DNA from: an uncultured Candidatus Saccharibacteria bacterium
GTDB taxonomy: Bacteria; Patescibacteriota; Saccharimonadia; Saccharimonadales; JAGQNJ01
DNA: 64,000 nucleotides
NCBI GenBank assembly: GCA_964426845.1
Contig: CAYRSA010000003.1
Location: 70,751-134,750 of the forward strand
Direction: 5' to 3'
The translations under genes and the position numbers were made by a program. The notes under the pieces are model-generated. The model saw nothing but the letters and a program-made list of their open reading frames with translations, was not told where the DNA came from and ran no database searches. Positions 7,234 through 52,708 of this stretch are shown piece by piece (within the stretch, counting starts at the first letter, position 1; each line of letters opens with the position of its first letter).

Positions 7234-7246
7234 AAGACAAAGCTTA

Positions 7247-7255: not shown

Positions 7256-7262
7256 TATAGCT

Positions 7263-9241: not shown

Positions 9242-9242
9242 T

Positions 9243-10484: not shown

Positions 10485-10578
10485 TAAGGCGGGTTAGGAG
10501 ATTGAAGAATATGACTGTAGAAGATGATAACATTAAGGTATAATCAAAGCATAAGAAGTTACGGGGCTAACAAGAAAA

Positions 10579-11169
10579 ATGGTTAAGAAGTTACCAGACC
10601 TGGAAAAACATAAACACTCTCGGCTGAGTCAGGTGTTTGGTTCAAAGCGCAATCGGATGCTAGTGATCGTTGGCGTACTTGTCTTGGCTATAGTTGTAGC
10701 GGCCGCCATAATTATCAGTCAGCCTTCTCAAGACGAGCAAGACATAGCTGATATGAATGCCCTCAGTGAACAATCGGCTGCTTTGGTGGCGGACTATAAG
10801 TATGGTCAAGCTATAGCCCTGTGGCAGGCATTCTTAAAGAAACCACTCAGCCCAGACGTAAAGTGTGAGGCTAATTTGCGCTATGGCATAACCCTTTTAG
10901 ATAGCTTTAAGTACAATGATGCCTACGATAACCTCGTCGGCCTGCAGGAATCATGCAAAAATGTCGATCAGTACACTTTGACCTTAGGCTTAGCTAAGAG
11001 CGCCGATGGCGGGGCCCGAATTGTTCCAGCTATCGACAATTACAAAAAGGTCATTGACCAATTGAAACAAAGGCAAGAAAATCCACCCAAAGATTTCAAC
11101 GCTGAAGAGAATCAAAAGATGATTGCCGATTACCAAGAGACAATAAAGATTTTGGAGAGCAACTTATGA
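10579..11169 (+). CDS. Membrane-anchored helical-repeat (TPR-like) protein, copy 1
   Basis: 196 aa with an N-terminal TM anchor and then alpha-helical repeats (YKYGQAIALWQAFLKK). A TATAAT box lies at 10539-10544. 4-nt overlap with the next gene. Confidence 0.5.
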   Translation: MVKKLPDLEKHKHSRLSQVFGSKRNRMLVIVGVLVLAIVVAAAIIISQPSQDEQDIADMNALSEQSAALVADYKYGQAIALWQAFLKKPLSPDVKCEANLRYGITLLDSFKYNDAYDNLVGLQESCKNVDQYTLTLGLAKSADGGARIVPAIDNYKKVIDQLKQRQENPPKDFNAEENQKMIADYQETIKILESNL

Positions 11170-13496
11170 TCGCCCGAAAGCTAAAACGCCTAGTTCTGCT
11201 TGCTGCGGTGAGTTTATTATTTTTGACAGGTGTGGCTGGCTCGCTGCTGTTCCAGGCTAGCAAGGCTTTTGCCCAGGCGCCAGGCCTTAGGTTCCAGGTA
11301 CTGAAGAACGGTTCTTGTACTACTTCGGTAAATTCCGGAGACTTTGTAAATGTCAAAATATTTCGTGACGCCACCAGCGGTACTATAAGTAGCCTACAAG
11401 TTAAAGTTAATGGTGCCAATGTGACTACAAATCCCAGCTCAATTACCGGTTCGGCTAGCAACTTAGAAATTGCTGCGCCGACGCTGTCACAAAACCCCAG
11501 CACTATAACCGTCACCGGTTGGAATAACAACCAAAGCCAATCTGTAACATTTACCGCCTATTGCCAAGCTTCTGGTGTCAATTATGGCACTAACGGCTGG
11601 GGAGTGACAGTTAACACCAATACCAGTGGCGGCAGTAGCGGAACCGTCAATACAACTGCCTGCACGCCAACAGCCTGGTTTCAGCAGGGTAATTCTAGCT
11701 CGGCCAGCAGAATGTCCTATCTAGACTTGTCCCAGTCGAGTGCGACAGTTGTGAATAGCGGAGCCGCCTATACAGCCCAATTAAACGGCTCTGGTTATAA
11801 TAAGACCGACCAATACTTCTATGGCTTTACGCCTAGTTCTGGTTACGGTACGCCCGGTACTTTGTACCAATTCGATAGTCAAGGTGGCTCTAGAAGTCTG
11901 GGAATAGTCCTGCCTTCAGCAACCTACGGTGATGGTTGGTTTGCCGGTGATGTTCGAGGAGCTGGCATTCCTGGCCAAGATAACTACCTGTACGTAGTTC
12001 AATTAAACAGCAACAAGATCTACAAGATTAATCTGGGAACTGTAAGCGGCGCAGCCACCAACAGAATAGCTGCAACCGTTACTACTAGCAGAACTACCAG
12101 GCTTAACGATGTCGCCTTTAGTCCCCAGGACGGCAAGCTTTACGGATTTGATCAGAACCAAGGGGTTTTTGTAAGAGTTGACCCAAGTAGCGGCACAGTA
12201 ACTAATATTAGCCAGCCCTATACAGCCAATCCTCACGGTGTAGCCTGGTTCTACCAAACTAGCAGTGGCACCGCTTTTTACTCCTATGACAACACAGGAC
12301 AAATATACAGGTTTCTAGGTATCGAAAACTACGGTCCTGGCAATCTTTTGCCAGTCCAGCCACCTTGGAAATCGGCTACCTCAACCCAACAAAACGATGG
12401 TTCAGTCTGTGCCACTACTGGAGACCCGTTCTGTACGGCTCCTGATGGCTCCACCTGGCCCATTGGCCACGCCAATTGTAATCCTCCACCACCGGACGTT
12501 TGCCCTAACATAGCCGGCAGCCAGACGGCTGTGCCAACTGGCTACGTCAAGAACTCCGCTGGAGACTGTGTCATACCAGCTACGCCTTATCTAAGAGCCT
12601 ACGGCAACGATTTGGCGGTGGGTAGTGCTTTTGGGGCTAGTTGTGACGTTCGTGATAATGATGCTACATTCCGAGCTCGCGCTAGGTCAGTAACTAGTAA
12701 TACTTGGTCTGGGGCCTCCGGCCAATTTGCGCTCTTGGCTTTGGGCCAAATTGACGGCTTCTATAGCTCGAACCTGCGCAATCCGCCCACAGGTCCTCCT
12801 AATCCGCGAGTCGGTTTAACTTTCGGTAACTTCAACGGCTCGGCCCAGGTTACTGACTACGGGGGCTCAGGTGCTCAAAGCCGCTGTTTACCAGATTTCA
12901 TGAACAAGGCTTTTGCTGGTCAGTTAGAGACGGGCAATCGTACAATCAACACCACATCAGTCCCCGAATGCACAACTGCTACAGCAGCAACCTGTAGACA
13001 GGCTAGATTCATCCGCGGCGACGTCTATATCAATGGCAATATCACCTTTGATAACGCGGGTGGCTGGTCATCACCGAATAAGATCCCTAGTTACTACTTG
13101 GTCGTGGAGGGAAATATCTACATAGCTCCGGGAGTTACTCAATTAGACGGCGTGTTCATAGCCCAACCTAAGTTCACCGGTGGGGTAATGGACGCCAACA
13201 CCGGACAGATCCGCACCTGCGCCAGCTCGACGGGTGGAAACTTCACAACCATAAGCGCCTGTAACAATACATTGACAGTTAATGGAGCATTTATTGCTCA
13301 CCGCGTACTTTTCCAGCGCACAAAAGGTGACTCTAACGCCGCCAGCGCCACTGAAGGAGTCAATGATACTGGCAATGTGGCTGAGGTATTCAAGTTTAGC
13401 CCCGAGACTTATCTGGCGACACCGCCAGCAAATTTCCAAACCGGTCAGTCTCTCAAGAAGTACGATTTCATCACCAGTCTGCCGCCAGTCCTGTAA
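11166..13496 (+). CDS. Large secreted protein, putative pilus-tip adhesin (PilY1-position), copy 1
   Basis: 776 aa with a signal peptide ending AFAQA. It has a beta-rich Thr/Ser/Gly composition and propeller-like repeats (DVAFSPQDGKLYGFDQNQGVFVRVDPSSG). The functional call rests on its position after the minor pilins only. Confidence 0.5.
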   Translation: MIARKLKRLVLLAAVSLLFLTGVAGSLLFQASKAFAQAPGLRFQVLKNGSCTTSVNSGDFVNVKIFRDATSGTISSLQVKVNGANVTTNPSSITGSASNLEIAAPTLSQNPSTITVTGWNNNQSQSVTFTAYCQASGVNYGTNGWGVTVNTNTSGGSSGTVNTTACTPTAWFQQGNSSSASRMSYLDLSQSSATVVNSGAAYTAQLNGSGYNKTDQYFYGFTPSSGYGTPGTLYQFDSQGGSRSLGIVLPSATYGDGWFAGDVRGAGIPGQDNYLYVVQLNSNKIYKINLGTVSGAATNRIAATVTTSRTTRLNDVAFSPQDGKLYGFDQNQGVFVRVDPSSGTVTNISQPYTANPHGVAWFYQTSSGTAFYSYDNTGQIYRFLGIENYGPGNLLPVQPPWKSATSTQQNDGSVCATTGDPFCTAPDGSTWPIGHANCNPPPPDVCPNIAGSQTAVPTGYVKNSAGDCVIPATPYLRAYGNDLAVGSAFGASCDVRDNDATFRARARSVTSNTWSGASGQFALLALGQIDGFYSSNLRNPPTGPPNPRVGLTFGNFNGSAQVTDYGGSGAQSRCLPDFMNKAFAGQLETGNRTINTTSVPECTTATAATCRQARFIRGDVYINGNITFDNAGGWSSPNKIPSYYLVVEGNIYIAPGVTQLDGVFIAQPKFTGGVMDANTGQIRTCASSTGGNFTTISACNNTLTVNGAFIAHRVLFQRTKGDSNAASATEGVNDTGNVAEVFKFSPETYLATPPANFQTGQSLKKYDFITSLPPVL

Positions 13497-13613
13497 GTAT
13501 TTTTCCACAACGGGGTAAACGGACCTTAAAAGAGCCTTGCAATTCAAAGTGTTTATGGTTACCATACAAGTATCAATCTATAAACGGGCATCGAATAAAG
13601 GGGTAAAATAACA

Positions 13614-14093
13614 ATGAAAAAACTACAAAAAGAGCAAAAAGGCTTCACAATCATCGAAGTTATGATCGTCTTGGTCATCGCTGCGGTGATCATCCTGATC
13701 GTTTTCTTGGCGGTTCCAGCCTTGCAACGTAACGCTCGAAACAACCAACGTAAGAGCGACGCCGCTCGTATTAGCGCAGCTGTTAGTGAGTATACCAACA
13801 ATACTAACGGTAGCCTGCCAACTACTTGGGGTAACATCAAGCCTTACCTAGGTAACATGGCTTTCTATACCACCCTGCCAGCAGACGGTGACGCAATTGG
13901 TAACGCGACAGCCAACCAAACAGTTGCTACCGCTGACACCGCTCCAGCTGTGGCCAAAAGGGCAACCTGCAACACTACGGCCGGCGACGTTAACATCGGT
14001 AAAGCCGTAACCAGTACTCAAGATAGACAATTTGTCGTTCTCTACAAAACTGAAGGTGGATCAACCGAACCTTCTCAGTGTATTGCTGGCTAA
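13614..14093 (+). CDS. pilA: Major type IV pilin, copy 1
   Basis: KEQKG/FTIIEVMIVLVIAAVIILIVFLAV with Glu+5. 159 aa with a C-terminal Cys pair. It has its own upstream spacer and RBS and is followed by a strong terminator. Confidence 0.8.
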   Translation: MKKLQKEQKGFTIIEVMIVLVIAAVIILIVFLAVPALQRNARNNQRKSDAARISAAVSEYTNNTNGSLPTTWGNIKPYLGNMAFYTTLPADGDAIGNATANQTVATADTAPAVAKRATCNTTAGDVNIGKAVTSTQDRQFVVLYKTEGGSTEPSQCIAG

Positions 14094-14112
14094 TAGCTAA
14101 CAACTAGTACTT

Positions 14113-14136
14113 AAACAGCCCTTCGGGGCTGTTTTT
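14113..14136. terminator. Bidirectional intrinsic terminator between pilA and xer, copy 1
   Basis: aaacagccc-ttcg-gggctgttttt: a 9-bp stem and UUCG loop, with an A-tract on one side and a T-tract on the other. Confidence 0.7.
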
Positions 14137-14144
14137 GATTGGCT

Positions 14145-15059
14145 TTATTCAGCTTTGCGGTGATATTGGTCGTGAACTTTTTTGAGGTGGGGGTCAGTGA
14201 CATGAGTGTATATCTGGGTAGTAGCCACGTTGCTGTGGCCCAGCATGGCCTGGACGGACCGCAGATCGGCTCCATTCATAAGCAAGTCAGTGGCGAAAGA
14301 GTGGCGCAGGGTGTGCGGGGAGACGTGTTTGGTGATGCCGGCTAGCTTGGCGTAGCGGGCCACCATCCGCTGGATGCTGCGGGCAGTTAGGCGTTTATAG
14401 TTGCCGCTATTATCAGCAGTTGAGCGGCCACCATAGCTAATAAACAGGGGTGGCAGACTATCCTCACGTCGGTTTAAATAGCCCTGAACCCAATCAGCCG
14501 CGGTAGGGCTTATGAAAATCGGCCGGTCCTTCTGGCCCTTGCCTCGGACCATGAACTCCCGGCGTTGCATGTTTACATGGTCGCGGTTGAGATTGACCAG
14601 TTCCGAGACCCGCAAGCCACTGGAGAATAGCAATTCCAAGATGGCTCGGTCGCGCAGTCCGCTGATTTCTTGGATCTTGGGTTGGGCGAACAGGCGTTCT
14701 AGCTCTTCAGGGTTAAGGAAGGTTACTTGCTTTCGTCGAGTGCGGGCTAGTTCAATTTTGTCAGCTGACAGGGCAGGGATGCTCCGCCGAGCACAGAATT
14801 TCAGAAATGAACGGAGGGCAATTAGATGATAGTTTTGGGTAGTTTTGTCCAACTCATCAGAGGTGTTGGTGCCCAGGCGGTTCAGCCACAGGCGCCATTT
14901 TTGGATAAGTTCAGGAGTGATATCCGAAACGTTGATATCGCCGGCATAGTCTTCTAGACGGGTGAGGTAGTGGTCGTAGTTATGAATGGTTTTTCCGGAG
15001 CGGTTTTGCTCGATCTCTAAGTATTCTAGAAAATCGGTCTTGGCTTTGGAAAAACGCAT
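14145..15059 (-). CDS. Xer-type site-specific tyrosine recombinase, copy 1
   Basis: 305 aa from ATG 15059 (MRFSKAKTDF). Catalytic signature GLRVSEL, HTLRHSFAT, LGHSNVATTQIYTHV. The listed 407-aa ORF is an artefactual upstream extension. Confidence 0.85.
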   Translation of the reverse strand: MRFSKAKTDFLEYLEIEQNRSGKTIHNYDHYLTRLEDYAGDINVSDITPELIQKWRLWLNRLGTNTSDELDKTTQNYHLIALRSFLKFCARRSIPALSADKIELARTRRKQVTFLNPEELERLFAQPKIQEISGLRDRAILELLFSSGLRVSELVNLNRDHVNMQRREFMVRGKGQKDRPIFISPTAADWVQGYLNRREDSLPPLFISYGGRSTADNSGNYKRLTARSIQRMVARYAKLAGITKHVSPHTLRHSFATDLLMNGADLRSVQAMLGHSNVATTQIYTHVTDPHLKKVHDQYHRKAE

Positions 15060-15161
15060 ACTCTTATTGTAATACACTAATGCTTCCAACCGGCATTCTA
15101 ATCTGTTATACTGCCCATAAGAATACAAAATGTATACAATAATCAGCAAAAGGAGACAGCC

Positions 15162-15182
15162 TTGGAACGAACTCTCATTATT
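15162..15182 (+). other. Duplicated ndk 5' end (TTG start + 6 codons) at the duplication joint
   Basis: Matches 23361-23381 except one base at 15179. The ndk frame stops after 11 codons (MERTLIIDWWW*). Confidence 0.85.
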
Positions 15183-15432
15183 GATTGGTGGTGGTGACGT
15201 CAAGCTGGCAGTCATCCTAGGGGTTTTTGCAGGAGGTTTTATAGAGGGAGTTATACTAATCTTTATTGCTTCACTGCTGGGGACGATTGTCTCGTTACCG
15301 CTAGTTATTATGGGCAAGGGCCGAGGTAAGCAAATACCATTTGGCCCCTTTTTGATAATTGCCACCATTATCGTTTACCTATTTGGAGCCAGTATTATAG
15401 CCGAGTATAAACAGCGGTTCCTTCTCATATAA
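15183..15432 (+). pseudogene. pilD: pilD 3' fragment (codons ~189-271) created by the duplication
   Basis: Aligns to 6984-7233 with 12 substitutions. It lacks the N-terminal two thirds of pilD. Confidence 0.85.
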
Positions 15433-15461
15433 AAAACAAAGCTTATGCTATACTTATAGCT

Positions 15462-16310
15462 ATGAAAGAGGGCAGGTCCGGCAGGCTTACTGGCGGGTTC
15501 ACGATTTTAGAGGTGATGATTTTTTTAATCATCACTGGCGTGTTGCTCGTCGCCGCCATGTCTCTATTGAGCGGTCAGCATAATAGAACGGCCTTTAGGC
15601 AATCAATCCGCGAGAACGAATCACAGTTTAAGACTACTATCAACGAGGTGGCCAGTGGTTTTTATCCCAACAACGGCAATTTTAGTTGCACAGTCAGCCC
15701 GGGCGGCATACCGACTTTTACCAGCGCTACAGCAACCGAACAAGGCCAAAACGAAGACTGTCTTTTCCTGGGCAAAGTAGTCAGGGTTAATCCTGGAGGC
15801 ACGAGTTATAGTATTTATACCATCGCCGGACGCCGACTAGTCAGTGGTACAGAGGTGACGCAACTACAAGACGCTAATCCCAGGCCAGTGGCCCGGTTTA
15901 GTGGTGATCCGGTAAATACACCGGATGTAACTCAGACGGTAAATCTGCCATCCGACATCCAGATAACTAAGGTAGTCAGCATAAGTACGGCCGGCGTGCA
16001 AACAACAATTGACGCTTTTGGGTTTATGATGTCGGTCGGCAAGACCTCTGGTGGTGACTTGGTTTCCGGGGCTCAGGCTATCAGTCTGGTGCCACTGCCT
16101 AATCCAGCTCCTAACGATAATGACTTCAAAACCGGTATAAGCGGGATGCAGCAAGTTCACGTTGGCAGTGCTAAAACGATCGTCTTATGCGTAAGACAAG
16201 GTGGGACCGGCGGTGCCCAAGGAGCAATTGTATTTGGGTCGCAAGGCCGACAACTTAGTACGGAAGTAATAATAGGAGCTCCGCCCAGCGGATATACGTG
16301 CCCAGCATGA
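15462..16310 (+). CDS. Prepilin-like protein (minor pilin candidate), copy 2
   Basis: Translation identical to 7263-8111 (offset +8199). Confidence 0.7.
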   Translation: MKEGRSGRLTGGFTILEVMIFLIITGVLLVAAMSLLSGQHNRTAFRQSIRENESQFKTTINEVASGFYPNNGNFSCTVSPGGIPTFTSATATEQGQNEDCLFLGKVVRVNPGGTSYSIYTIAGRRLVSGTEVTQLQDANPRPVARFSGDPVNTPDVTQTVNLPSDIQITKVVSISTAGVQTTIDAFGFMMSVGKTSGGDLVSGAQAISLVPLPNPAPNDNDFKTGISGMQQVHVGSAKTIVLCVRQGGTGGAQGAIVFGSQGRQLSTEVIIGAPPSGYTCPA

Positions 16311-16810
16311 AACAACTAGATAGAAACCACCACATCAACAATCAACGAGGCGATACCATCGTCGAAGTTCTAATATGCCTGATGATTATCGGGCTGGCTA
16401 TAGGCATTGGCTACGGCATCGCCTCGCGTAGTCTAAAAGCCGCTCGCCAAGCTCAAGAGCGCACCGAGGCAGTTAAAATCGCTGAAGGCCAAGTCGAGAG
16501 GATTAAAGGTGTGTTGGCTGGAGTTAACACGGCTGAAAAGGATAAGATTACAGACCAGTCCACCAACGTTTTTTGTATGAATAGCTCTGGCGCAGTCGTC
16601 ACCTTTCCTGGTGCCTACGGCACCACCATCAAGAATTTAGACAGCGACGATCTTACCAACTATCCAGCTGACTGTACTCAAGGGCTTTACAAGGTAATTA
16701 TTGACCAGGACACGGCAACCCCTAACCAGTTTGCTGTTGTGGTGCGCTGGGAAAGCCTTGGTGCCGGCAAACGTGAGGAAGTAAAAATTAAGTACAAGGT
16801 TTATCAATAG
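16298..16810 (+). CDS. Prepilin-like protein (minor pilin candidate), copy 2
   Basis: Translation identical to 8099-8611 (offset +8199). Confidence 0.65.
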   Translation: MPSMKQLDRNHHINNQRGDTIVEVLICLMIIGLAIGIGYGIASRSLKAARQAQERTEAVKIAEGQVERIKGVLAGVNTAEKDKITDQSTNVFCMNSSGAVVTFPGAYGTTIKNLDSDDLTNYPADCTQGLYKVIIDQDTATPNQFAVVVRWESLGAGKREEVKIKYKVYQ

Positions 16811-17440
16811 ATGAAAAAGAACCAGGCCGGTTTTACTCTAGTTGAGCTACTAATCGCTACGTCCATCTTTGCCGTAATATTATTAGCGGCTACAGCCACC
16901 TTGATTCAGGTTGGACGCATGTACTACAAGGGTGTGATTGCTTCCAGGACCCAGGATACAGCTCGAACTCTTACCGATGACATCAGCCGAAGTTTACAAT
17001 TTAGCGGCGGTACCGTACCAACTCTAAACCTGGGTGGCAGCCCTCCCGTATCAGCAATTTGCTTTGCTGACACCCGGCTTACCTTTGTCGTGAATGTCCA
17101 GGCCCCGGAAAATATTGCCCATGCCTTGTGGCAGGATACTATCGCTGGACCGGGCAGCTGTGCGGCTAGCCCAATCAGCCTGACGGCGCCGAATCCAGGC
17201 GGGCTTGACGGCAAGGATTTGCTCGACCCGCATATGCGTCTGACTAAGCTGTCGGTGACTCCGTCGGCAGGTAGCCCAGACGTTTACGACGTAGAAGTAG
17301 GCGTGGCCTACGGTGACACCGACCTTTTCAACCTTGATGGTATGGGCAAGCCAGTTTCTTGTAAGGGCTCGGTTCTTGGCGGTCAATGGTGCGCGATATC
17401 GGAAATTAAAACGCAAGTGTTTAGAAGGGTAGAGGATTAA
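16811..17440 (+). CDS. Prepilin-like protein (PilW-type candidate), copy 2
   Basis: Translation identical to 8612-9241 (offset +8199). Confidence 0.7.
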   Translation: MKKNQAGFTLVELLIATSIFAVILLAATATLIQVGRMYYKGVIASRTQDTARTLTDDISRSLQFSGGTVPTLNLGGSPPVSAICFADTRLTFVVNVQAPENIAHALWQDTIAGPGSCAASPISLTAPNPGGLDGKDLLDPHMRLTKLSVTPSAGSPDVYDVEVGVAYGDTDLFNLDGMGKPVSCKGSVLGGQWCAISEIKTQVFRRVED

Positions 17441-17441
17441 T

Positions 17442-18683
17442 ATGAGCAAGCAATCAACCAATAAACTCAGGGCTAATCAAAGCGGTCTAGTGTCAATCCT
17501 GGTCTCTATGGTATTCATTATCATACTGACCTTGATAACCACTAGCTTTGCTTTGCTTATGCGACGTGAACAACGCCAAGCTCTGGACCGTCAACTCAGC
17601 GCCCAAGCCTTCTATGCCGCCGAGAGCGGAATCAATGATGCCATCGAGAACATTAGTGCTGGCACGGCCGTAAGTCAGGACTGCAGCAACACGACTTCTG
17701 TAATAGGCGGATCAACCGACCTTGGTGACGGTTTATCAATCAGTTGTGTGCTGATTGATAAGACCCCGAGCTCACTTGAGTATTCTGTCCCTAAAAACGA
17801 ATCTAGAGTCGTACCAGTCTTGACGTCAGAACCTATAAGTAAGATTAGAATTAGCTGGCAGGCGGAAAGCGGTCAAACGGCCTTTGCCGCCACTAGTTCT
17901 ACTTTCAATTTTCCCCAGGGAGCATATGGCTCTAATGTCAACGTTGGCGATGTTGGAGTACTTCGGGTTTCGGCCATGCCAATTACTAGCGATGTCAGTC
18001 GGTCCACTCTAACCAATAACACTCAGACAATGTTTTTATACCCGCAAACCGGAAGCGGCTCACCAAACACGCGTAACTATAATGCTAGCCCCGCTGCGCA
18101 GGGAGACATCATCAACGGTAAGTGTAATTCTGCCAATACCCCATACTGCTCGGCGGAGATCACCAACCTGCCGGGTACAAACAACTACTACCTTCGAGTT
18201 AAGTCAATCTACAAAGATAGCAATGTATCTATCAAGGCTTACAATGCTGGTGGGACGGAGCTGCCATTACTGGGGACCCAGGCCAAAATTGACTCTACCG
18301 GCAAAGCCAACGATGTTTTACGCCGTATACAGGTTAGGGTACCGATTAACAACCAGTTTATGTATCCAGAATTTGCGGTGGAAACCGCTGACGACATCTG
18401 TAAGTTGCTGCTAGCCATTCCTCCCGATACCGTCCAGGACGGCGAATGCTATACCGATTCCGATACCCCACCACCACCGCCACCACCAGCAGCCGTAGAC
18501 GTCTGCTCAAACATTGCCGGAATTCAGACAACTGTGCCCGCAGGCTATGTCTCTAACGGTAGTGGTGAATGTACGGTACCACCACCGCCACCACCAGTTT
18601 TACCCCCTTGTGAACCCGCACCTGCTTGGTGGTTGCCAGCCTATGGTACGTGGCCGCAATATCCAAGTCCTTGCACTCCATGA
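17442..18683 (+). CDS. PilX/GspK-like minor pilin candidate, copy 2
   Basis: Translation identical to 9243-10484 (offset +8199). Confidence 0.55.
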   Translation: MSKQSTNKLRANQSGLVSILVSMVFIIILTLITTSFALLMRREQRQALDRQLSAQAFYAAESGINDAIENISAGTAVSQDCSNTTSVIGGSTDLGDGLSISCVLIDKTPSSLEYSVPKNESRVVPVLTSEPISKIRISWQAESGQTAFAATSSTFNFPQGAYGSNVNVGDVGVLRVSAMPITSDVSRSTLTNNTQTMFLYPQTGSGSPNTRNYNASPAAQGDIINGKCNSANTPYCSAEITNLPGTNNYYLRVKSIYKDSNVSIKAYNAGGTELPLLGTQAKIDSTGKANDVLRRIQVRVPINNQFMYPEFAVETADDICKLLLAIPPDTVQDGECYTDSDTPPPPPPPAAVDVCSNIAGIQTTVPAGYVSNGSGECTVPPPPPPVLPPCEPAPAWWLPAYGTWPQYPSPCTP

Positions 18684-18777
18684 TAAGGCGGGTTAGGAGA
18701 TTGAAGAATATGACTGTAGAAGATGATAACATTAAGGTATAATCAAAGCATAAGAAGTTACGGGGCTAACAAGAAAA

Positions 18778-19368
18778 ATGGTTAAGAAGTTACCAGACCT
18801 GGAAAAACATAAACACTCTCGGCTGAGTCAGGTGTTTGGTTCAAAGCGCAATCGGATGCTAGTGATCGTTGGCGTACTTGTCTTGGCTATAGTTGTAGCG
18901 GCCGCCATAATTATCAGTCAGCCTTCTCAAGACGAGCAAGACATAGCTGATATGAATGCCCTCAGTGAACAATCGGCTGCTTTGGTGGCGGACTATAAGT
19001 ATGGTCAAGCTATAGCCCTGTGGCAGGCATTCTTAAAGAAACCACTCAGCCCAGACGTAAAGTGTGAGGCTAATTTGCGCTATGGCATAACCCTTTTAGA
19101 TAGCTTTAAGTACAATGATGCCTACGATAACCTCGTCGGCCTGCAGGAATCATGCAAAAATGTCGATCAGTACACTTTGACCTTAGGCTTAGCTAAGAGC
19201 GCCGATGGCGGGGCCCGAATTGTTCCAGCTATCGACAATTACAAAAAGGTCATTGACCAATTGAAACAAAGGCAAGAAAATCCACCCAAAGATTTCAACG
19301 CTGAAGAGAATCAAAAGATGATTGCCGATTACCAAGAGACAATAAAGATTTTGGAGAGCAACTTATGA
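18778..19368 (+). CDS. Membrane-anchored helical-repeat protein, copy 2
   Basis: Translation identical to 10579-11169 (offset +8199). Confidence 0.5.
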   Translation: MVKKLPDLEKHKHSRLSQVFGSKRNRMLVIVGVLVLAIVVAAAIIISQPSQDEQDIADMNALSEQSAALVADYKYGQAIALWQAFLKKPLSPDVKCEANLRYGITLLDSFKYNDAYDNLVGLQESCKNVDQYTLTLGLAKSADGGARIVPAIDNYKKVIDQLKQRQENPPKDFNAEENQKMIADYQETIKILESNL

Positions 19369-21695
19369 TCGCCCGAAAGCTAAAACGCCTAGTTCTGCTT
19401 GCTGCGGTGAGTTTATTATTTTTGACAGGTGTGGCTGGCTCGCTGCTGTTCCAGGCTAGCAAGGCTTTTGCCCAGGCGCCAGGCCTTAGGTTCCAGGTAC
19501 TGAAGAACGGTTCTTGTACTACTTCGGTAAATTCCGGAGACTTTGTAAATGTCAAAATATTTCGTGACGCCACCAGCGGTACTATAAGTAGCCTACAAGT
19601 TAAAGTTAATGGTGCCAATGTGACTACAAATCCCAGCTCAATTACCGGTTCGGCTAGCAACTTAGAAATTGCTGCGCCGACGCTGTCACAAAACCCCAGC
19701 ACTATAACCGTCACCGGTTGGAATAACAACCAAAGCCAATCTGTAACATTTACCGCCTATTGCCAAGCTTCTGGTGTCAATTATGGCACTAACGGCTGGG
19801 GAGTGACAGTTAACACCAATACCAGTGGCGGCAGTAGCGGAACCGTCAATACAACTGCCTGCACGCCAACAGCCTGGTTTCAGCAGGGTAATTCTAGCTC
19901 GGCCAGCAGAATGTCCTATCTAGACTTGTCCCAGTCGAGTGCGACAGTTGTGAATAGCGGAGCCGCCTATACAGCCCAATTAAACGGCTCTGGTTATAAT
20001 AAGACCGACCAATACTTCTATGGCTTTACGCCTAGTTCTGGTTACGGTACGCCCGGTACTTTGTACCAATTCGATAGTCAAGGTGGCTCTAGAAGTCTGG
20101 GAATAGTCCTGCCTTCAGCAACCTACGGTGATGGTTGGTTTGCCGGTGATGTTCGAGGAGCTGGCATTCCTGGCCAAGATAACTACCTGTACGTAGTTCA
20201 ATTAAACAGCAACAAGATCTACAAGATTAATCTGGGAACTGTAAGCGGCGCAGCCACCAACAGAATAGCTGCAACCGTTACTACTAGCAGAACTACCAGG
20301 CTTAACGATGTCGCCTTTAGTCCCCAGGACGGCAAGCTTTACGGATTTGATCAGAACCAAGGGGTTTTTGTAAGAGTTGACCCAAGTAGCGGCACAGTAA
20401 CTAATATTAGCCAGCCCTATACAGCCAATCCTCACGGTGTAGCCTGGTTCTACCAAACTAGCAGTGGCACCGCTTTTTACTCCTATGACAACACAGGACA
20501 AATATACAGGTTTCTAGGTATCGAAAACTACGGTCCTGGCAATCTTTTGCCAGTCCAGCCACCTTGGAAATCGGCTACCTCAACCCAACAAAACGATGGT
20601 TCAGTCTGTGCCACTACTGGAGACCCGTTCTGTACGGCTCCTGATGGCTCCACCTGGCCCATTGGCCACGCCAATTGTAATCCTCCACCACCGGACGTTT
20701 GCCCTAACATAGCCGGCAGCCAGACGGCTGTGCCAACTGGCTACGTCAAGAACTCCGCTGGAGACTGTGTCATACCAGCTACGCCTTATCTAAGAGCCTA
20801 CGGCAACGATTTGGCGGTGGGTAGTGCTTTTGGGGCTAGTTGTGACGTTCGTGATAATGATGCTACATTCCGAGCTCGCGCTAGGTCAGTAACTAGTAAT
20901 ACTTGGTCTGGGGCCTCCGGCCAATTTGCGCTCTTGGCTTTGGGCCAAATTGACGGCTTCTATAGCTCGAACCTGCGCAATCCGCCCACAGGTCCTCCTA
21001 ATCCGCGAGTCGGTTTAACTTTCGGTAACTTCAACGGCTCGGCCCAGGTTACTGACTACGGGGGCTCAGGTGCTCAAAGCCGCTGTTTACCAGATTTCAT
21101 GAACAAGGCTTTTGCTGGTCAGTTAGAGACGGGCAATCGTACAATCAACACCACATCAGTCCCCGAATGCACAACTGCTACAGCAGCAACCTGTAGACAG
21201 GCTAGATTCATCCGCGGCGACGTCTATATCAATGGCAATATCACCTTTGATAACGCGGGTGGCTGGTCATCACCGAATAAGATCCCTAGTTACTACTTGG
21301 TCGTGGAGGGAAATATCTACATAGCTCCGGGAGTTACTCAATTAGACGGCGTGTTCATAGCCCAACCTAAGTTCACCGGTGGGGTAATGGACGCCAACAC
21401 CGGACAGATCCGCACCTGCGCCAGCTCGACGGGTGGAAACTTCACAACCATAAGCGCCTGTAACAATACATTGACAGTTAATGGAGCATTTATTGCTCAC
21501 CGCGTACTTTTCCAGCGCACAAAAGGTGACTCTAACGCCGCCAGCGCCACTGAAGGAGTCAATGATACTGGCAATGTGGCTGAGGTATTCAAGTTTAGCC
21601 CCGAGACTTATCTGGCGACACCGCCAGCAAATTTCCAAACCGGTCAGTCTCTCAAGAAGTACGATTTCATCACCAGTCTGCCGCCAGTCCTGTAA
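19365..21695 (+). CDS. Large secreted putative tip adhesin, copy 2
   Basis: Translation identical to 11166-13496 (offset +8199). Confidence 0.5.
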   Translation: MIARKLKRLVLLAAVSLLFLTGVAGSLLFQASKAFAQAPGLRFQVLKNGSCTTSVNSGDFVNVKIFRDATSGTISSLQVKVNGANVTTNPSSITGSASNLEIAAPTLSQNPSTITVTGWNNNQSQSVTFTAYCQASGVNYGTNGWGVTVNTNTSGGSSGTVNTTACTPTAWFQQGNSSSASRMSYLDLSQSSATVVNSGAAYTAQLNGSGYNKTDQYFYGFTPSSGYGTPGTLYQFDSQGGSRSLGIVLPSATYGDGWFAGDVRGAGIPGQDNYLYVVQLNSNKIYKINLGTVSGAATNRIAATVTTSRTTRLNDVAFSPQDGKLYGFDQNQGVFVRVDPSSGTVTNISQPYTANPHGVAWFYQTSSGTAFYSYDNTGQIYRFLGIENYGPGNLLPVQPPWKSATSTQQNDGSVCATTGDPFCTAPDGSTWPIGHANCNPPPPDVCPNIAGSQTAVPTGYVKNSAGDCVIPATPYLRAYGNDLAVGSAFGASCDVRDNDATFRARARSVTSNTWSGASGQFALLALGQIDGFYSSNLRNPPTGPPNPRVGLTFGNFNGSAQVTDYGGSGAQSRCLPDFMNKAFAGQLETGNRTINTTSVPECTTATAATCRQARFIRGDVYINGNITFDNAGGWSSPNKIPSYYLVVEGNIYIAPGVTQLDGVFIAQPKFTGGVMDANTGQIRTCASSTGGNFTTISACNNTLTVNGAFIAHRVLFQRTKGDSNAASATEGVNDTGNVAEVFKFSPETYLATPPANFQTGQSLKKYDFITSLPPVL

Positions 21696-21812
21696 GTATT
21701 TTTCCACAACGGGGTAAACGGACCTTAAAAGAGCCTTGCAATTCAAAGTGTTTATGGTTACCATACAAGTATCAATCTATAAACGGGCATCGAATAAAGG
21801 GGTAAAATAACA

Positions 21813-22292
21813 ATGAAAAAACTACAAAAAGAGCAAAAAGGCTTCACAATCATCGAAGTTATGATCGTCTTGGTCATCGCTGCGGTGATCATCCTGATCG
21901 TTTTCTTGGCGGTTCCAGCCTTGCAACGTAACGCTCGAAACAACCAACGTAAGAGCGACGCCGCTCGTATTAGCGCAGCTGTTAGTGAGTATACCAACAA
22001 TACTAACGGTAGCCTGCCAACTACTTGGGGTAACATCAAGCCTTACCTAGGTAACATGGCTTTCTATACCACCCTGCCAGCAGACGGTGACGCAATTGGT
22101 AACGCGACAGCCAACCAAACAGTTGCTACCGCTGACACCGCTCCAGCTGTGGCCAAAAGGGCAACCTGCAACACTACGGCCGGCGACGTTAACATCGGTA
22201 AAGCCGTAACCAGTACTCAAGATAGACAATTTGTCGTTCTCTACAAAACTGAAGGTGGATCAACCGAACCTTCTCAGTGTATTGCTGGCTAA
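21813..22292 (+). CDS. pilA: Major type IV pilin, copy 2
   Basis: Translation identical to 13614-14093 (offset +8199). Confidence 0.8.
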   Translation: MKKLQKEQKGFTIIEVMIVLVIAAVIILIVFLAVPALQRNARNNQRKSDAARISAAVSEYTNNTNGSLPTTWGNIKPYLGNMAFYTTLPADGDAIGNATANQTVATADTAPAVAKRATCNTTAGDVNIGKAVTSTQDRQFVVLYKTEGGSTEPSQCIAG

Positions 22293-22311
22293 TAGCTAAC
22301 AACTAGTACTT

Positions 22312-22335
22312 AAACAGCCCTTCGGGGCTGTTTTT
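22312..22335. terminator. Bidirectional intrinsic terminator, copy 2
   Basis: Same hairpin as 14113-14136. Confidence 0.7.
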
Positions 22336-22343
22336 GATTGGCT

Positions 22344-23258
22344 TTATTCAGCTTTGCGGTGATATTGGTCGTGAACTTTTTTGAGGTGGGGGTCAGTGAC
22401 ATGAGTGTATATCTGGGTAGTAGCCACGTTGCTGTGGCCCAGCATGGCCTGGACGGACCGCAGATCGGCTCCATTCATAAGCAAGTCAGTGGCGAAAGAG
22501 TGGCGCAGGGTGTGCGGGGAGACGTGTTTGGTGATGCCGGCTAGCTTGGCGTAGCGGGCCACCATCCGCTGGATGCTGCGGGCAGTTAGGCGTTTATAGT
22601 TGCCGCTATTATCAGCAGTTGAGCGGCCACCATAGCTAATAAACAGGGGTGGCAGACTATCCTCACGTCGGTTTAAATAGCCCTGAACCCAATCAGCCGC
22701 GGTAGGGCTTATGAAAATCGGCCGGTCCTTCTGGCCCTTGCCTCGGACCATGAACTCCCGGCGTTGCATGTTTACATGGTCGCGGTTGAGATTGACCAGT
22801 TCCGAGACCCGCAAGCCACTGGAGAATAGCAATTCCAAGATGGCTCGGTCGCGCAGTCCGCTGATTTCTTGGATCTTGGGTTGGGCGAACAGGCGTTCTA
22901 GCTCTTCAGGGTTAAGGAAGGTTACTTGCTTTCGTCGAGTGCGGGCTAGTTCAATTTTGTCAGCTGACAGGGCAGGGATGCTCCGCCGAGCACAGAATTT
23001 CAGAAATGAACGGAGGGCAATTAGATGATAGTTTTGGGTAGTTTTGTCCAACTCATCAGAGGTGTTGGTGCCCAGGCGGTTCAGCCACAGGCGCCATTTT
23101 TGGATAAGTTCAGGAGTGATATCCGAAACGTTGATATCGCCGGCATAGTCTTCTAGACGGGTGAGGTAGTGGTCGTAGTTATGAATGGTTTTTCCGGAGC
23201 GGTTTTGCTCGATCTCTAAGTATTCTAGAAAATCGGTCTTGGCTTTGGAAAAACGCAT
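22344..23258 (-). CDS. Xer-type site-specific tyrosine recombinase, copy 2
   Basis: Identical protein from ATG 23258. The listed ORF start at 23327 is an upstream extension. Confidence 0.85.
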   Translation of the reverse strand: MRFSKAKTDFLEYLEIEQNRSGKTIHNYDHYLTRLEDYAGDINVSDITPELIQKWRLWLNRLGTNTSDELDKTTQNYHLIALRSFLKFCARRSIPALSADKIELARTRRKQVTFLNPEELERLFAQPKIQEISGLRDRAILELLFSSGLRVSELVNLNRDHVNMQRREFMVRGKGQKDRPIFISPTAADWVQGYLNRREDSLPPLFISYGGRSTADNSGNYKRLTARSIQRMVARYAKLAGITKHVSPHTLRHSFATDLLMNGADLRSVQAMLGHSNVATTQIYTHVTDPHLKKVHDQYHRKAE

Positions 23259-23360
23259 ACTCTTATTGTAATACACTAATGCTTCCAACTGGCATTCTAA
23301 TCTGTTATACTGCCCACAAGAATACAAAATGTATACAATAATCAGTAAAAGGAGACAGCC

Positions 23361-23873
23361 TTGGAACGAACTCTCATAATTTTAAAACCGGATGCCGTTA
23401 AGCGCGGTATAGTCGGCGAAATCATCAGCCGCTTTGAAAAAGCCGGCCTGAAAATTGTTGGAGCCAAGATGTTACAACCGGATTATGATCATTATCACAC
23501 GCATTACGAGGGTATCAGTAAGATGATTTCTCGCCGAGGGCAGGAGGCTTTCGATGTTACCCTGGAAATGATGCAAGAAGGGCCTGTTATTGCGTTTGTT
23601 CTAGAAGGTGTTAATGCCGCAAGTTTGGTGCGAAAGATGGTAGGTGACACCGAGCCCGAGAAGGCTCTGCCAGGTACGGTTCGTGGCGATTACGCCCACA
23701 TGGGCTTTGCTCACTCCAATAAAGAGAGGATTGGTGTGCCAAATCTGATTCACGCCTCCGGTGATGCTGACGAGGCCAAGGTGGAGATTGCTCATTGGTT
23801 TTCGGAAGCTGAGCTATTTGAATACGAAGCTGTTCACGAAGTTTACACTCAAGCCAGAAGTCGCAAGAAATAA
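23361..23873 (+). CDS. ndk: Nucleoside diphosphate kinase
   Basis: TTG start with AAAGGAG 7 nt upstream. MERTLIILKPDAVKRG and the active-site His motif NLIHASGD are present. 170 aa. Confidence 0.9.
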   Translation: MERTLIILKPDAVKRGIVGEIISRFEKAGLKIVGAKMLQPDYDHYHTHYEGISKMISRRGQEAFDVTLEMMQEGPVIAFVLEGVNAASLVRKMVGDTEPEKALPGTVRGDYAHMGFAHSNKERIGVPNLIHASGDADEAKVEIAHWFSEAELFEYEAVHEVYTQARSRKK

Positions 23874-23876
23874 AGC

Positions 23877-23961
23877 TGGTGCCCCGGGCAGGATAGACGC
23901 CCGTTACCTTCGGTAACGAACGAACCTGCGACTATTGCCTGCTAGCGCAGTCACGTCGCAG
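23877..23961 (-). other. Partial copy of the tRNA-Arg 3' end with a 27-nt hairpin insertion in the T-loop position
   Basis: 23877-23894 and 23922-23932 equal the tRNA-Arg 3' portion (T arm, acceptor 3' strand, CCA). The tc of the T-loop is replaced by agacgcccgttaccttcggtaacgaac (23895-23921). 23955-23961 is complementary to 23926-23932. No 5' tRNA half is present. Confidence 0.5.
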
Positions 23962-23987
23962 AACCGTATCTTACAAGATGACCAACG

Positions 23988-24010
23988 AAAAAACTGGCCT
24001 TTCGACCAGT
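23988..24010 (-). terminator. Intrinsic terminator after tRNA-Arg
   Basis: The minus strand reads ACUGGUC-GAAA-GGCCAGU followed by UUUUUU. Confidence 0.6.
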
Positions 24011-24018
24011 TCTTCCGT

Positions 24019-24095
24019 TGGTGCCCCGGGCAGGATTCGAACCTGCGACGCCCGCCTTAGGACGGCGGCGCTCTAATCCACTGAGCTACCGAGGC
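24019..24095 (-). tRNA. tRNA-Arg (anticodon CCU)
   Basis: Hand-folded cloverleaf, 77 nt. Acceptor GCCUCGG/CCGGGGC, D arm GCUC..GAGC, anticodon arm CCGCC-GUCCUAA-GGCGG, T arm GCAGG-UUCGAAU-CCUGC. CCA is encoded. Confidence 0.9.
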
Positions 24096-39139: not shown

Positions 39140-39167
39140 AAAAAAGACCTCCACTCGGGGGTCTTTT
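39140..39167. terminator. Bidirectional intrinsic terminator
   Basis: aaaaa-gacctcc-actc-gggggtc-tttt. Confidence 0.7.
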
Positions 39168-39259: not shown

Positions 39260-39324
39260 TCGCTTGACTCGATAGGACAGCAGTACAAATAAAAAACCAC
39301 CTATCGGCGGCATTTCATTTATCC

Positions 39325-52699: not shown

Positions 52700-52708
52700 T
52701 ATGAAAAA

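Follow-up and report, generated by a model that had tools for sequence, protein, structure and literature searches.

Two tRNA genes in the window, a 64,000-nucleotide stretch of Saccharibacteria (TM7/CPR) genome DNA, carry at their 3′ ends short structured segments for which close relatives have empty sites. The account we favor, with modest confidence, is that each locus is a miniature, protein-less integrative element that resides in the T-loop of a single-copy tRNA gene and acts as a folded single strand. The segment inserted after tRNA position 57/58 measures about 124 nt at tRNA-Arg and 118-130 nt at tRNA-Asp. Judging from the sequence comparisons, what is new in this analysis is the apparent existence of tiny (~125 nt) structured elements in tRNA genes that seem to be common in Saccharibacteria; our literature searches found no description of such elements, and the nearest paper concerned group I introns at tRNA position 35/36 (PMC13011429).

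The tRNA-Arg locus is arranged as follows, in the order of the tRNA strand.

24019-24095, minus strand: intact tRNA-Arg(CCT) (ARAGORN; Rfam RF00005 at 62.3 bits)
24036-24019, minus strand: tRNA-Arg positions 59-76, probable element-borne replacement (empty site in L017)
23988-24010, minus strand: putative element-borne hairpin CTGGTC-GAAA-GGCCAG with a T6 tail, resembling a terminator and immediately past the regenerated tRNA-Arg (read from the sequence)
23968-23979, minus strand: P1, tentatively assigned small hairpin ATCTT-GTA-AGAT (sequence reading; a hairpin stands at the equivalent place in other family members)
23962-23967, minus strand: ACGGTT, a weaker extension of S′
23955-23961, minus strand: S′, CTGCGAC, complement of tRNA-Arg positions 46-52 (sequence; helix in the minimum-free-energy fold)
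23939-23950, minus strand: tip hairpin CTGC-GCTA-GCAG, inside the S′:S helix (sequence and fold)
23921-23932, minus strand: S, direct copy of tRNA-Arg positions 46-57, 12/12 identical (sequence)
23895-23920, minus strand: P3 of "type W", 26-nt insert (sequence and fold; the motif is also at tRNA-Asp in the window and in L123)
23922-23898, minus strand: 11-bp P3 hairpin with a GAA loop, made of the insert and the preceding CG
23877-23894, minus strand: displaced original 3′ end of tRNA-Arg, positions 59-76 including CCA (sequence; comparison with L017)

The initial annotation had reported that the 3′ end of tRNA-Arg recurs 142 nt downstream on the minus strand, and the two segments are indeed exact: the 12-nt GTCGCAGGTTCG (23932-23921) equals tRNA positions 46-57 and the 18-nt ATCCTGCCCGGGGCACCA (23894-23877) equals positions 59-76, with a start-to-start distance of 142 nt between the two 18-mers. 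An exact 18-nt repeat at this spacing is not attributable to chance. The 26-nt sequence TTCGTTACCGAAGGTAACGGGCGTCT (23920-23895) stands where the tRNA has A58; the replacement had been counted as 27 nt for two T-loop bases, and on our recount it is 26 nt for A58, which is equivalent to 27 nt for GA one base earlier. CTGCGAC, which had been proposed to pair with the tRNA-derived segment, was found at 23961-23955 and forms a helix with it in the predicted fold. The convergent ndk gene has its stop codon 3 nt from the displaced fragment. The terminator-like hairpin at 23988-24010 was missed by a simple terminator scan, which called its equivalent at the tRNA-Asp locus (39311-39296 plus a T run). 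The latter locus has the following parts.

39325-39402, minus strand: intact tRNA-Asp(GTC) (ARAGORN and Rfam)
39342-39325, minus strand: tRNA-Asp positions 59-76, probable element-borne replacement (empty sites in L100-L103 and L119)
39290-39324, minus strand: putative element-borne flank ggataaatgaaa (39324-39313) and intrinsic terminator (sequence; left-end homologues in L120 and L123)
39253-39259, minus strand: S′, GGCGATC, complement of tRNA-Asp positions 46-52 (sequence and fold; identical S′ in L120 and L123)
39234-39252, minus strand: tip region, from S′ to S, in which GC-GAAT-GC forms a small hairpin (sequence)
39221-39233, minus strand: S, direct copy of tRNA-Asp positions 45-57 (GATCGCCGATTCG), 12/13 identical, G53 to A (sequence)
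39195-39220, minus strand: P3 of type W, 26-nt insert TTCGTTGACGAAGTCAACGGGCGTCT (sequence; repeat family D4)
39165-39194, minus strand: displaced original 3′ end of tRNA-Asp (ATCCGGTCGGGCCCGCCA, 39194-39177) and 12 nt of repeated flank (sequence; repeat family D5)
39142-39167, no strand assigned: the host's original terminator, common to a convergent 152-aa ORF (terminator scan; it adjoins the intact tRNA-Asp in relatives with an empty site)

At tRNA-Asp the direct repeat runs 12 nt beyond CCA (ggataaatgaaa, 39176-39165), a point absent from the initial annotation. The tip hairpin of this locus is GT-GAAT-AC in L123, a compensatory difference from the GC-GAAT-GC of the window. The P3 hairpin of the window copies, CGTTCGTTACC-GAA-GGTAACGGGCG, reaches 11 bp by taking the CG of the T-loop into its stem, and the Arg and Asp copies are two compensatory base pairs apart, which bears out the earlier claim of equal architecture with compensatory stem changes. 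Within the window AACGGGCGTCT is present in only two places, the Arg and Asp loci, and the 56-nt block (family D4) is the sole cross-locus repeat of its kind. The window P3 is a plain hairpin that lacks the CGCA/GAGCA internal loop of the commoner P3 types; the two copies form a minimal subtype, which we call type W. Both nonetheless hold every part of the layout by which we define the Saccharibacteria tRNA-linked hairpin family, namely, on the tRNA strand, the 3′ piece, a terminator, P1, S′ (53-65 nt past CCA), the tip hairpin, S, P3 and the displaced 3′ piece. S′ starts 57 and 65 nt after CCA in the two window elements and at 53-64 nt in nearly all members of the family. Seven assemblies of this species, made independently, contain the same sequence, so an assembly error is excluded as its source. 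All six contigs of the Arg locus depart from the window at a single site, 24123, which is upstream of the tRNA and does not belong to the feature.

Comparison with relatives indicates which of the two 3′ ends is the older. In L017, whose neighbouring SurA-like protein is 83% identical, the ndk stop codon is followed by 23 nt and then by an intact tRNA-Arg; between ndk and tRNA-Arg the window is longer by 142 nt. In L100-L103 and L119 (94-95% identity of the neighbouring protein) the terminator AAAAAAGACCTCCAtTCGGGGGTCTTTT lies ~10 nt from an intact tRNA-Asp. The same host terminator abuts the displaced fragment in the window, and we therefore conclude that the 3′ end of the intact gene, together with its terminator, was imported. 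Because close relatives have empty sites, the last 18 nt of the intact tRNA and the new terminator are taken to be imported at both loci. L123 and L120 have occupied tRNA-Asp sites with the element type of the window, so that presence and absence (occupied in these two loci; empty in L017, L100-L103 and L119) are polymorphic with precise boundaries. These sequence comparisons show the window copies to be insertions relative to close relatives, with the tRNA regenerated and the old 3′ fragment displaced. Nevertheless, the element-borne flank and terminator resemble the host's own, with 12 nt identical at tRNA-Asp, and could reflect a local duplication rather than import.

The empty sites alter two points of the initial annotation. 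The partial copy had been described as a tRNA derivative with an insertion in its T-loop, whereas it is the old 3′ end of the gene, which an insertion has pushed away; the hairpin, in turn, is not a T-loop insertion as such but the terminal P3 of the inserted element, adjoining the displaced fragment. That the structure is neither a second tRNA gene nor a simple intron, on the other hand, agrees with our results, as a 5′ half is absent by both ARAGORN and Rfam. A decayed tandem tRNA duplicate, a T-loop intron or a split-tRNA half would account for a P1-to-CCA unit that is roughly tRNA-sized plus the insert, and tRNA introns are known in Patescibacteria (PMC13011429). We regard this family of explanations as extremely improbable and contradicted by the empty-site comparisons: the 5′ half is lacking, what precedes S is a complement of the T-arm without homology to the tRNA, and the host terminator sits beside the fragment instead of beside the intact gene. 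The known Patescibacteria introns are self-splicing group I introns at position 35/36 that were detected with the Rfam group I covariance model (PMC13011429). They share with the present loci the phylum and an interruption associated with tRNA-Asp (PMC13011429); the tRNAs described here are uninterrupted, however, and neither group I nor any other Rfam model matches the window elements at gathering thresholds. A search of the L033 arrays at E values up to 10 returned tRNAs and noise only.

The architecture is not confined to the window. Same-strand 3′ fragments 80-630 nt downstream were found for 16/74 tRNA-Arg, 15/51 tRNA-Asp, 2/20 tRNA-Val, 1/25 tRNA-Gly and 1/32 tRNA-Thr genes, these being raw counts that include same-species duplicates. 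After de-duplication an element is present at at least 23 of 166 distinct tRNA loci, or 28 with five reclassified loci that had first been classed as element-free and have an inverted T-arm match of at least 9 nt (the element was seen in four of them; the fifth is L028). About 25 independent elements measure 97-188 nt, with one outlier of 645 nt, and two contain cargo ORFs (123 aa in L060 and 106 aa in L120). Some loci hold arrays (three units at tRNA-Arg of L033, two and a remnant at tRNA-Val of L038, others at L076/L088 and L120) in which the distal fragments are progressively decayed. Thus, the family is widespread and includes arrays. The recurrence beside other tRNA genes that the initial annotation proposed to look for was seen at about two dozen other Saccharibacteria loci with the same architecture, and its proposed search among relatives yielded an identical hairpin at tRNA-Asp in L123 and a compensated variant in L120. 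Lineage-specific P3 signatures are common to the elements of one genome, as with type W at the Arg and Asp loci of the window and likewise in L004 and L007.

Could the loci be scars left by prophages or genomic islands of kilobase size that entered the T-loop and were then almost wholly deleted? A regenerated tRNA with a displaced 3′ fragment is the classic signature of integration into a tRNA gene, as set out in PMC4383910, and small ORFs are present in two elements. The sizes nevertheless cluster tightly, the spacing from CCA to S′ is fixed, conservation and covariation mark the hairpin modules, and a single architecture is not expected from random deletions; moreover, no element larger than 650 nt and no element-borne integrase was found at 74 tRNA-Arg loci with flanks of up to 6 kb. 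We find this explanation very improbable. The idea of an att-site remnant, raised at the outset, holds insofar as the target is regenerated and a fragment displaced, but the ~125-nt unit is the entity itself and not the remnant of a larger element.

Covariation was examined in the core of the commoner P3 type, using a gap-free alignment of 18 sequences and 10 pairs. In this alignment 93% of cells are paired, both partners vary in every one of the 10 pairs, the internal-loop bases are invariant, and the covariation score is 0.767, compared with 0.27 for shuffles and at most 0.10 for slid controls. Orthologous elements in L004, L006 and L032 also show compensatory differences. The tRNA-sense strand folds better in 21/25 elements, by a mean of 4.5 kcal/mol (p = 1e-4), and its folds contain about twice as many G-U pairs. 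Alignment of whole elements (MAFFT and RNAalifold) recovered a single stem, the hairpin lengths differing too much. Inverted T-arm copies are enriched downstream of element-bearing tRNAs relative to element-free loci (p = 6e-8), and a noisy search found no locus with an inverted T-arm copy that lacked S or P3. On these measures, the hairpins covary and fold best on one strand; together with the recurrence at other tRNA loci and in relatives, the compensatory changes support the earlier suggestion of a conserved single-strand structure as opposed to random decay. A C(GAA)G triloop is characteristic of stable DNA hairpins, a G(CUUG)C tetraloop of RNA. CUUG-type loops are the commonest tetraloops among the elements, and loop composition fails to discriminate DNA from RNA.

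These data bear on a second hypothesis, that the loci encode a structured non-coding RNA family kept by the host downstream of tRNA genes and transcribed by read-through, in which the tRNA-derived segments are functional, the insertion history is incidental and the RNA might possibly be a tRNA mimic, a decoy, or a processing or regulatory RNA. The strong covariation of the P3 core with its invariant internal-loop bases, the folding bias toward the tRNA sense with its G-U pairs, the prevalence of CUUG-type tetraloops and the P3 signatures proper to single genomes are all in keeping with an RNA, as is the small size of these genomes, which have little spare DNA. Compensatory evolution continues at orthologous loci while the 3′ fragment decays, and the older copies, whose hairpins are intact, would also fit a function kept by the host. 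We think this hypothesis unlikely, however. Presence is patchy among relatives at 93-95% protein identity, arrays contain decaying units, and the decay falls on the 3′ piece, where such an RNA would look most like a tRNA; in addition, a scan of the window found no promoter-like site upstream of either copy, a terminator stands between each copy and its tRNA, and no Rfam family matches.

The elements and the scanned window ORFs yielded no recombinase, transposase, HUH enzyme or reverse transcriptase, and the ORFs no Y1 transposase either; no integron integrase was seen within the window. The two window elements are non-coding and contain no integrase. A tyrosine recombinase is encoded near the Arg locus, outside the repeats; it is Xer-like, syntenic in about 50 loci at 73-92% identity (64% for one truncated match), and scores 132 bits against an integron-integrase model with a cut-off of 265 bits. 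It looks like a housekeeping gene, and being conserved, syntenic and Xer-like it was rejected as the mobilising "integrase" of a local island. Neither a free nor a circular form of the element was found, and P3 joined to the element's own left end (GGGCGTCT-ATCCTGCCCGGGGCACCA-ACGGAAGAACTGG) is an arrangement absent from the chromosome. The exact motif TTCGTT-N9-AACGGGCGTCTAT gave 0 matches in genome, viral and metagenome contig collections and is present in relatives held by ENA, which were reached via neighbouring proteins. Viral contigs gave 0 matches to the type-A P3 18-mer, and a full element queried by blastn matched nothing among phage and plasmid records. Eleven viral matches to a degenerate P3-core pattern were dismissed as chance, being phage coding sequence with non-complementary stems.

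Another scenario is that an RNA guides the mobility, P1, S′:S and P3 forming a scaffold and the 18-20-nt tRNA segment a 3′ guide that directs a trans-encoded nuclease or recombinase to T-loops. As with the omega/reRNA of TnpB and the bridge RNA of IS110, a structured module at the element end runs directly into target-identical sequence, here of 17-22 nt; the would-be guide sits downstream of the conserved T-loop TTCGA, a possible adjacent motif, the structure is strand-specific, the target-complementary S′ and the target-identical segments reside in one module, and many different tRNAs are targeted. Yet S′ and S are paired with each other in a closed helix and not exposed in open loops, the guide would also match the regenerated tRNA, and the "guide" is fully accounted for as a displaced, decaying gene fragment. 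No cognate protein of the TnpB, IscB or IS110 type was found in the window or in any element. We consider an RNA-guided element quite improbable.

In the explanation that we favor, a miniature integrative element, the inserted DNA would bring a replacement for tRNA positions 59-76 with a terminator, by which the tRNA would stay intact and expressed, followed by the small hairpin P1, S′ as an inverted copy of the 5′ side of the target T-arm, the tip hairpin, S as a direct copy of a segment of that side, and the terminal hairpin P3. The gene's original 3′ end would remain just past P3 as a functionless displaced fragment. The element would move when an enzyme encoded elsewhere recombines it site-specifically with the tRNA gene. 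The att site may work as a folded single strand, S′ binding S and, where members are fuller, the opening bases of the 3′ piece as well; the duplex so rebuilt would mimic the double-stranded T-arm target, and P3 would form a side branch at the exchange point. In this it would be comparable to the attC sites of integrons and to the attP of CTX phage, which is also folded. Against this explanation stand the negative searches for an enzyme and for a free form, and the recurrence of a given P3 type at different tRNAs while S, S′ and the 3′ piece are re-matched to each target, which is not easily explained by a simple integrase model.

Several known systems share part of this design. In islands and prophages of tRNA and tmRNA genes (Islander-type, with the T-loop as sublocation), as here, the target is split, the element supplies the 3′ end, the displaced fragment lies at the far end, and tandem arrays form at one tRNA gene with the newest unit nearest the gene; the corresponding direct repeats in the window are 18 nt (Arg) and 30 nt (Asp). 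Unlike these islands, which span kilobases and encode an integrase, the Saccharibacteria elements have about 97-188 nt and no integrase, their direct target copy is interrupted by a hairpin, and only they combine a covarying multi-hairpin module with an inverted target copy beside the displaced fragment. Integron cassettes with attC and the attP of CTX phage are similar in that units are protein-less or carry a single ORF, arrays form at one site, and structure is kept while sequence is free to vary; by analogy, a strand-specific hairpin would rebuild a target-like duplex on which an enzyme acts in trans. The target here, however, is the tRNA T-loop and not attI or dif, action on single-stranded DNA is a conjecture, a tRNA 3′ end and a terminator are part of every unit, and no integron integrase was found in the window. 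The attC consensus boxes R″ (RYYYAAC) and R′ (GTTRRRY) are absent from the elements beyond the AAC/GTT of the T-loop, the GAAC...GTTC of the S′-tip-S hairpin being there because the hairpin copies the T-loop. PATEs derived from IS200/IS605 and REP/BIME sequences have a similar size, are non-coding, form strand-specific hairpins and insert by a short conserved target, but they show neither target regeneration nor an 18-30-nt direct repeat; the Saccharibacteria elements show both, and no Y1 transposase was found among the scanned window ORFs. Nor do they resemble MITEs, as the element ends (ATCC...CCA and ...GGGCGTCT) are not inverted repeats and the flanking repeat is 18-30 nt of tRNA sequence.

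A bolder proposal, which we put forward tentatively and think rather less likely to hold than not, is that the elements belong to an unrecognised class of mobile cassette: a folded module of ~110 nt (DNA or RNA) whose T-arm-written helix would be a programmable address, inserting after T-loop position 57/58 and bringing as cargo a tRNA 3′ end with a terminator and, at times, a small gene, and whose P3 would be read by a trans-acting enzyme of host or element. If this is true, Saccharibacteria cassettes use tRNA genes as integron cassettes use attI. The elements break short-read assemblies at tRNA genes, and the tRNA fragments that they create can be mistaken for pseudogenes or att scars; they are also natural insertion sites for genetic tools in culturable, transformable Saccharibacteria. 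The target-matched helix suggests recognition via nucleic-acid structure instead of an element-encoded integrase. Behind it there could be a recombinase-substrate pair not seen before, or a host Xer-type enzyme put to a new use. If active, the elements would be among the smallest site-specific integrative elements known and a rare case of mobile DNA thriving in the ~1-Mb genomes of the CPR.

The 3' end of tRNA-Arg recurs 142 nt away on the minus strand, as the initial annotation had stated; this is the spacing of the two 18-mers of tRNA positions 59-76, and positions 46-57 were found again as well.

Features of the two loci
24019-24095, minus strand: tRNA-Arg(CCT), from ARAGORN and Rfam
39325-39402, minus strand: tRNA-Asp(GTC), from ARAGORN and Rfam
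23932-23921, minus strand: copy of tRNA-Arg positions 46-57 (GTCGCAGGTTCG), from reading of the sequence
23894-23877, minus strand: copy of tRNA-Arg positions 59-76 (ATCCTGCCCGGGGCACCA), from reading of the sequence
23961-23955, minus strand: CTGCGAC at the Arg locus, complementary, as claimed, to the first seven bases of the tRNA-derived copy

In the copy, A58 is replaced by the 26-nt sequence TTCGTTACCGAAGGTAACGGGCGTCT, which folds with the preceding CG into an 11-bp hairpin with a GAA loop. The reported parallel at tRNA-Asp holds: the layout is that of the Arg locus, with one mismatch in the first copied segment and a repeat that extends 12 nt beyond CCA, the upstream complement is altered to fit (GGCGATC), and the two inserts differ solely by two compensatory base pairs. 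The hairpin core motif has no further occurrence within the window. Fifteen nucleotides at 40536-40550, on the plus strand opposite to the tRNA and within a 530-aa ORF (40470-42062), match the tRNA-Arg 3' segment exactly (ATCCTGCCCGGGGCA), probably by chance. The sequence is identical in seven independent same-species assemblies; the six that span the Arg locus show a one-base difference from the window at 24123, which is upstream of the tRNA and not part of the feature. The feature is genuine sequence, neither chance nor an assembly artefact.

Comparison with relatives (L numbers denote the Saccharibacteria contigs and loci compared) showed that the window elements are insertions, with the target regenerated and a fragment displaced. 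The site is empty in L017, the closest relative with an Arg locus (83% identity in the SurA-like protein), where 23 nt separate the ndk stop from an intact tRNA-Arg; in the window, 3 nt separate this stop from the 18-nt fragment, and 124 nt of other sequence come before the remainder of the tRNA. Relatives for the Asp locus were collected via the neighbouring 152-aa protein, and the site is empty in L100-L103 and L119 (94-95% identity), in which about 10 nt lie between the terminator AAAAAAGACCTCCAtTCGGGGGTCTTTT and an intact tRNA-Asp. In the window the same host terminator (39142-39167) adjoins the displaced fragment, and a different terminator (39311-39296) lies downstream of the intact tRNA-Asp. 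Thus, the insertion brought in the last 18 nt of the working tRNA-Asp and its terminator, and displaced the gene's original end, which is now the downstream fragment. The hairpin that had been placed in a copied T-loop is present, but the supposed copy is the original gene end. The motif was also expected beside tRNA genes of relatives, and was found there: L123 (94%) carries the same element at tRNA-Asp with no change in the hairpin, L120 (93%) has a hairpin variant (CGTTCAGC-GAA-GCTGGGCG), and further Saccharibacteria loci have the same order of parts. Beyond the L120 variant, an older layer contains a 106-aa ORF and 9 nt left over from a still older fragment. With empty sites in relatives and no 5' half, a decayed tRNA duplicate, an intron or a split tRNA is hardly credible, in keeping with the earlier view that this is neither a tRNA gene nor a simple intron. 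The known tRNA interruptions of Patescibacteria are group I introns at position 35/36 (PMC13011429) and are distinct from the elements.

An insertion of about 515 nt between tRNA-Thr and tRNA-Asp, in which a 134-aa ORF encodes a CdiA C-terminal toxin domain (39506-39910, plus strand), is also present in L123; L119 and L120 have only about 65 nt between these genes. No displaced tRNA-Thr fragment was found at this insertion, which is therefore of another kind than the hairpin elements. Short-read contigs of the window species and relatives (L001, Logan SRR14932609; L100-L103) often end in or beside tRNA genes. The L001 ends are consistent with duplicated tRNA ends breaking the assembly; the L100-L103 breaks need another cause, because the tRNA sites there are unoccupied.

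In 96 Saccharibacteria loci, all from around this gene neighbourhood, we looked for a same-strand copy of the last 14 nt before CCA, 80-630 nt downstream of a tRNA gene. Raw counts were 16/74 for tRNA-Arg, 15/51 for Asp, 2/20 for Val, 1/25 for Gly and 1/32 for Thr, and after de-duplication the element was present at at least 23 of 166 tRNA loci; the restriction to one neighbourhood biases both the tRNA spectrum and the frequencies. Read in tRNA sense, the order is tRNA, terminator, a small hairpin (P1), an inverted T-arm copy (S'), a tip hairpin, a direct copy (S), a terminal hairpin (P3) and the displaced tRNA end (3' piece). S' begins 53-64 nt after CCA and reproduces at most 16 nt of T-arm sequence (such as GATTTGAACCGGCGAT), S terminates in GGTTCG, P3 is 20-105 nt long, and the match of the 3' piece to the tRNA starts at position 55-60. 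The inverted T-arm copy is the hallmark of element-bearing loci, at which the longest such match has a median of 8 nt versus 5 nt at the others (p = 6e-8). Five more loci, first scored as element-free, have an inverted match of at least 9 nt (L004 Arg, L004 Asp, L006 Arg, L032 Arg and L028 Arg); the four that were inspected, the first four named, all contain an element with a decayed fragment. In old elements the hairpins are intact and the 3' piece is scarcely recognisable.

Arrays were seen at L033 Arg (three units), L038 Val (two and a remnant) and in L076 and L088; the youngest unit lies beside the gene, and distal fragments are increasingly degraded. In the arrays of L035 (7196-7445) and L038 (7073-7500), both of which terminate in a unit without S and P3, about 95 nt comprising 3' piece, terminator, P1 and S' are repeated exactly, and the intervening tip, S and P3 differ by about 18%, mostly through compensatory changes. 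These exact repeats may reflect gene conversion or a unit boundary within the tip hairpin. Small ORFs between the tRNA gene and the displaced fragment, one for a 123-aa predicted membrane protein (L060, 969-1340, minus strand) and one for a 106-aa low-complexity protein (L120, 2063-2383, minus strand), indicate that tRNA-linked units can carry cargo. The largest element among the loci scanned was at most 650 nt. The suggestion that the feature is an att-site remnant stands as regards the regenerated target and displaced fragment; scars of large islands are improbable given the uniform size and architecture.

The hairpin module is under selection, on one strand. In a gap-free alignment of 18 sequences, the core of the commoner P3 types consists of two 5-bp helices that flank an internal loop containing invariant bases; pairing holds in 93% of cells, 10 of 10 pairs change on both sides, and covariation scores 0.767 (shuffles, 0.27; slid controls, at most 0.10). 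The differences between the orthologous elements of L004, L006 and L032 are compensatory, as are those over four versions of the window's plain 11-bp hairpin (type W), so that the view of a conserved structure rather than random decay is upheld. From P1 to P3, the tRNA-sense strand folds better in 21 of 25 elements (mean 4.5 kcal/mol, p = 1e-4) and has about twice as many G-U pairs, and GNA triloops outnumber their complements 8:1. P1 and the tip hairpin of the window copies come from single-sequence folds. The structure acts as a single strand, either RNA or DNA, since double-stranded protein-binding sites would not covary in this way. No promoter-like site was found upstream of either window copy and a terminator separates tRNA and element in both, which counts for DNA or read-through; the loop types give indications both for RNA and for DNA. 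No Rfam family matched the elements, in searches of the window and of the L033 arrays. A non-coding RNA kept by the host would account for the long-term maintenance of the hairpins, but is unlikely in view of the patchy presence among near relatives, the decay of arrays and the lack of a promoter.

Classic tRNA-gene islands (PMC4383910) likewise show a regenerated target and a displaced fragment. Such islands carry their own integrase, whereas the elements tested contain none. The elements resemble integron attC and CTX attP in function alone and do not match the attC consensus. A full-text literature search of incomplete coverage found no published description of the elements, and an earlier one is possible.

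The window encodes mainly housekeeping functions (including ndk, tgt, thrS, miaA, infC and RNase P RNA), and its SurA-like protein retrieves exclusively Saccharibacteria/Saccharimonadia MAGs. The window ORFs scanned yielded no transposase, HUH enzyme or reverse transcriptase. A tyrosine recombinase gene 0.5 kb from the Arg locus was rejected as an island integrase: it lies outside the repeats, is found at the corresponding position of about 50 Saccharibacteria loci (73-92% identity, with 64% for one truncated match) and has XerC/XerD/XerA-like profile scores. In L061 and L064 this Xer-like gene is interrupted by an insertion of about 1.26 kb (~2330-3591; tblastn pieces 4358-3591 and 2330-2184). 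A tandem duplication of 8,199 bp (6984-15182 and 15183-23381; 99.8% identity) contains pilin-like genes, DUF6923 genes and the recombinase gene, and reaches 21 nt into ndk at its end. Because the segment is single-copy in L009 and L010, two other same-species assemblies, the duplication is either strain-specific or an assembly artefact; the first-copy recombinase ORF is lengthened to 407 aa solely because it reads across the junction. Beside the RNase P RNA gene (52357-52701), an ORF at 51687-52334 (plus strand) encodes a pterin-4a-carbinolamine dehydratase domain joined with an RNase H-like domain.

Recurrence at five tRNA species, occasional cargo and the covarying, strand-specific hairpin module incline us, by a little, to the interpretation that the elements are miniature integrative cassettes with the tRNA T-loop as their target; we rate the single-stranded-DNA detail lower. 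Integration would occur by site-specific recombination inside the 18-30-nt repeat, with an enzyme provided in trans and an att site that functions as a folded single strand. S' would pair with S and, in more complete members, would extend this pairing into the 4-5 nt at the start of the 3' piece (in L036, CAGGTTCG plus AATCC is the partner of GGATTCGAACCTG). This pairing would recreate the T-arm 5' side and T-loop as a duplex, from which P3 would branch at 57/58, the putative exchange point. Such an att site would explain why S' follows the sequence of each target, why P1 and the tip are conserved in structure only, why one strand folds better and why units stack like integron cassettes.

No mobilising enzyme was identified for the elements, and no free form was seen in the viral, phage and plasmid collections searched. 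One and the same P3 type can sit at different tRNAs, with every target-matching part adapted to the tRNA concerned (P3 type A at Arg and Asp; type W at both within the window), for which a plain integrase model accounts poorly. One could also envision an RNA-guided element with the 3' piece as guide, which we consider quite improbable. Local duplication may have been part of the origin of the element-borne flank and terminator, as these resemble those of the host. P3 signatures are common to the elements of one genome, which suggests either that they co-evolve with a factor encoded in the genome or that they are exchanged between elements. The elements might represent a new class of structure-addressed cassette, a prospect that we regard as doubtful, though of some weight.
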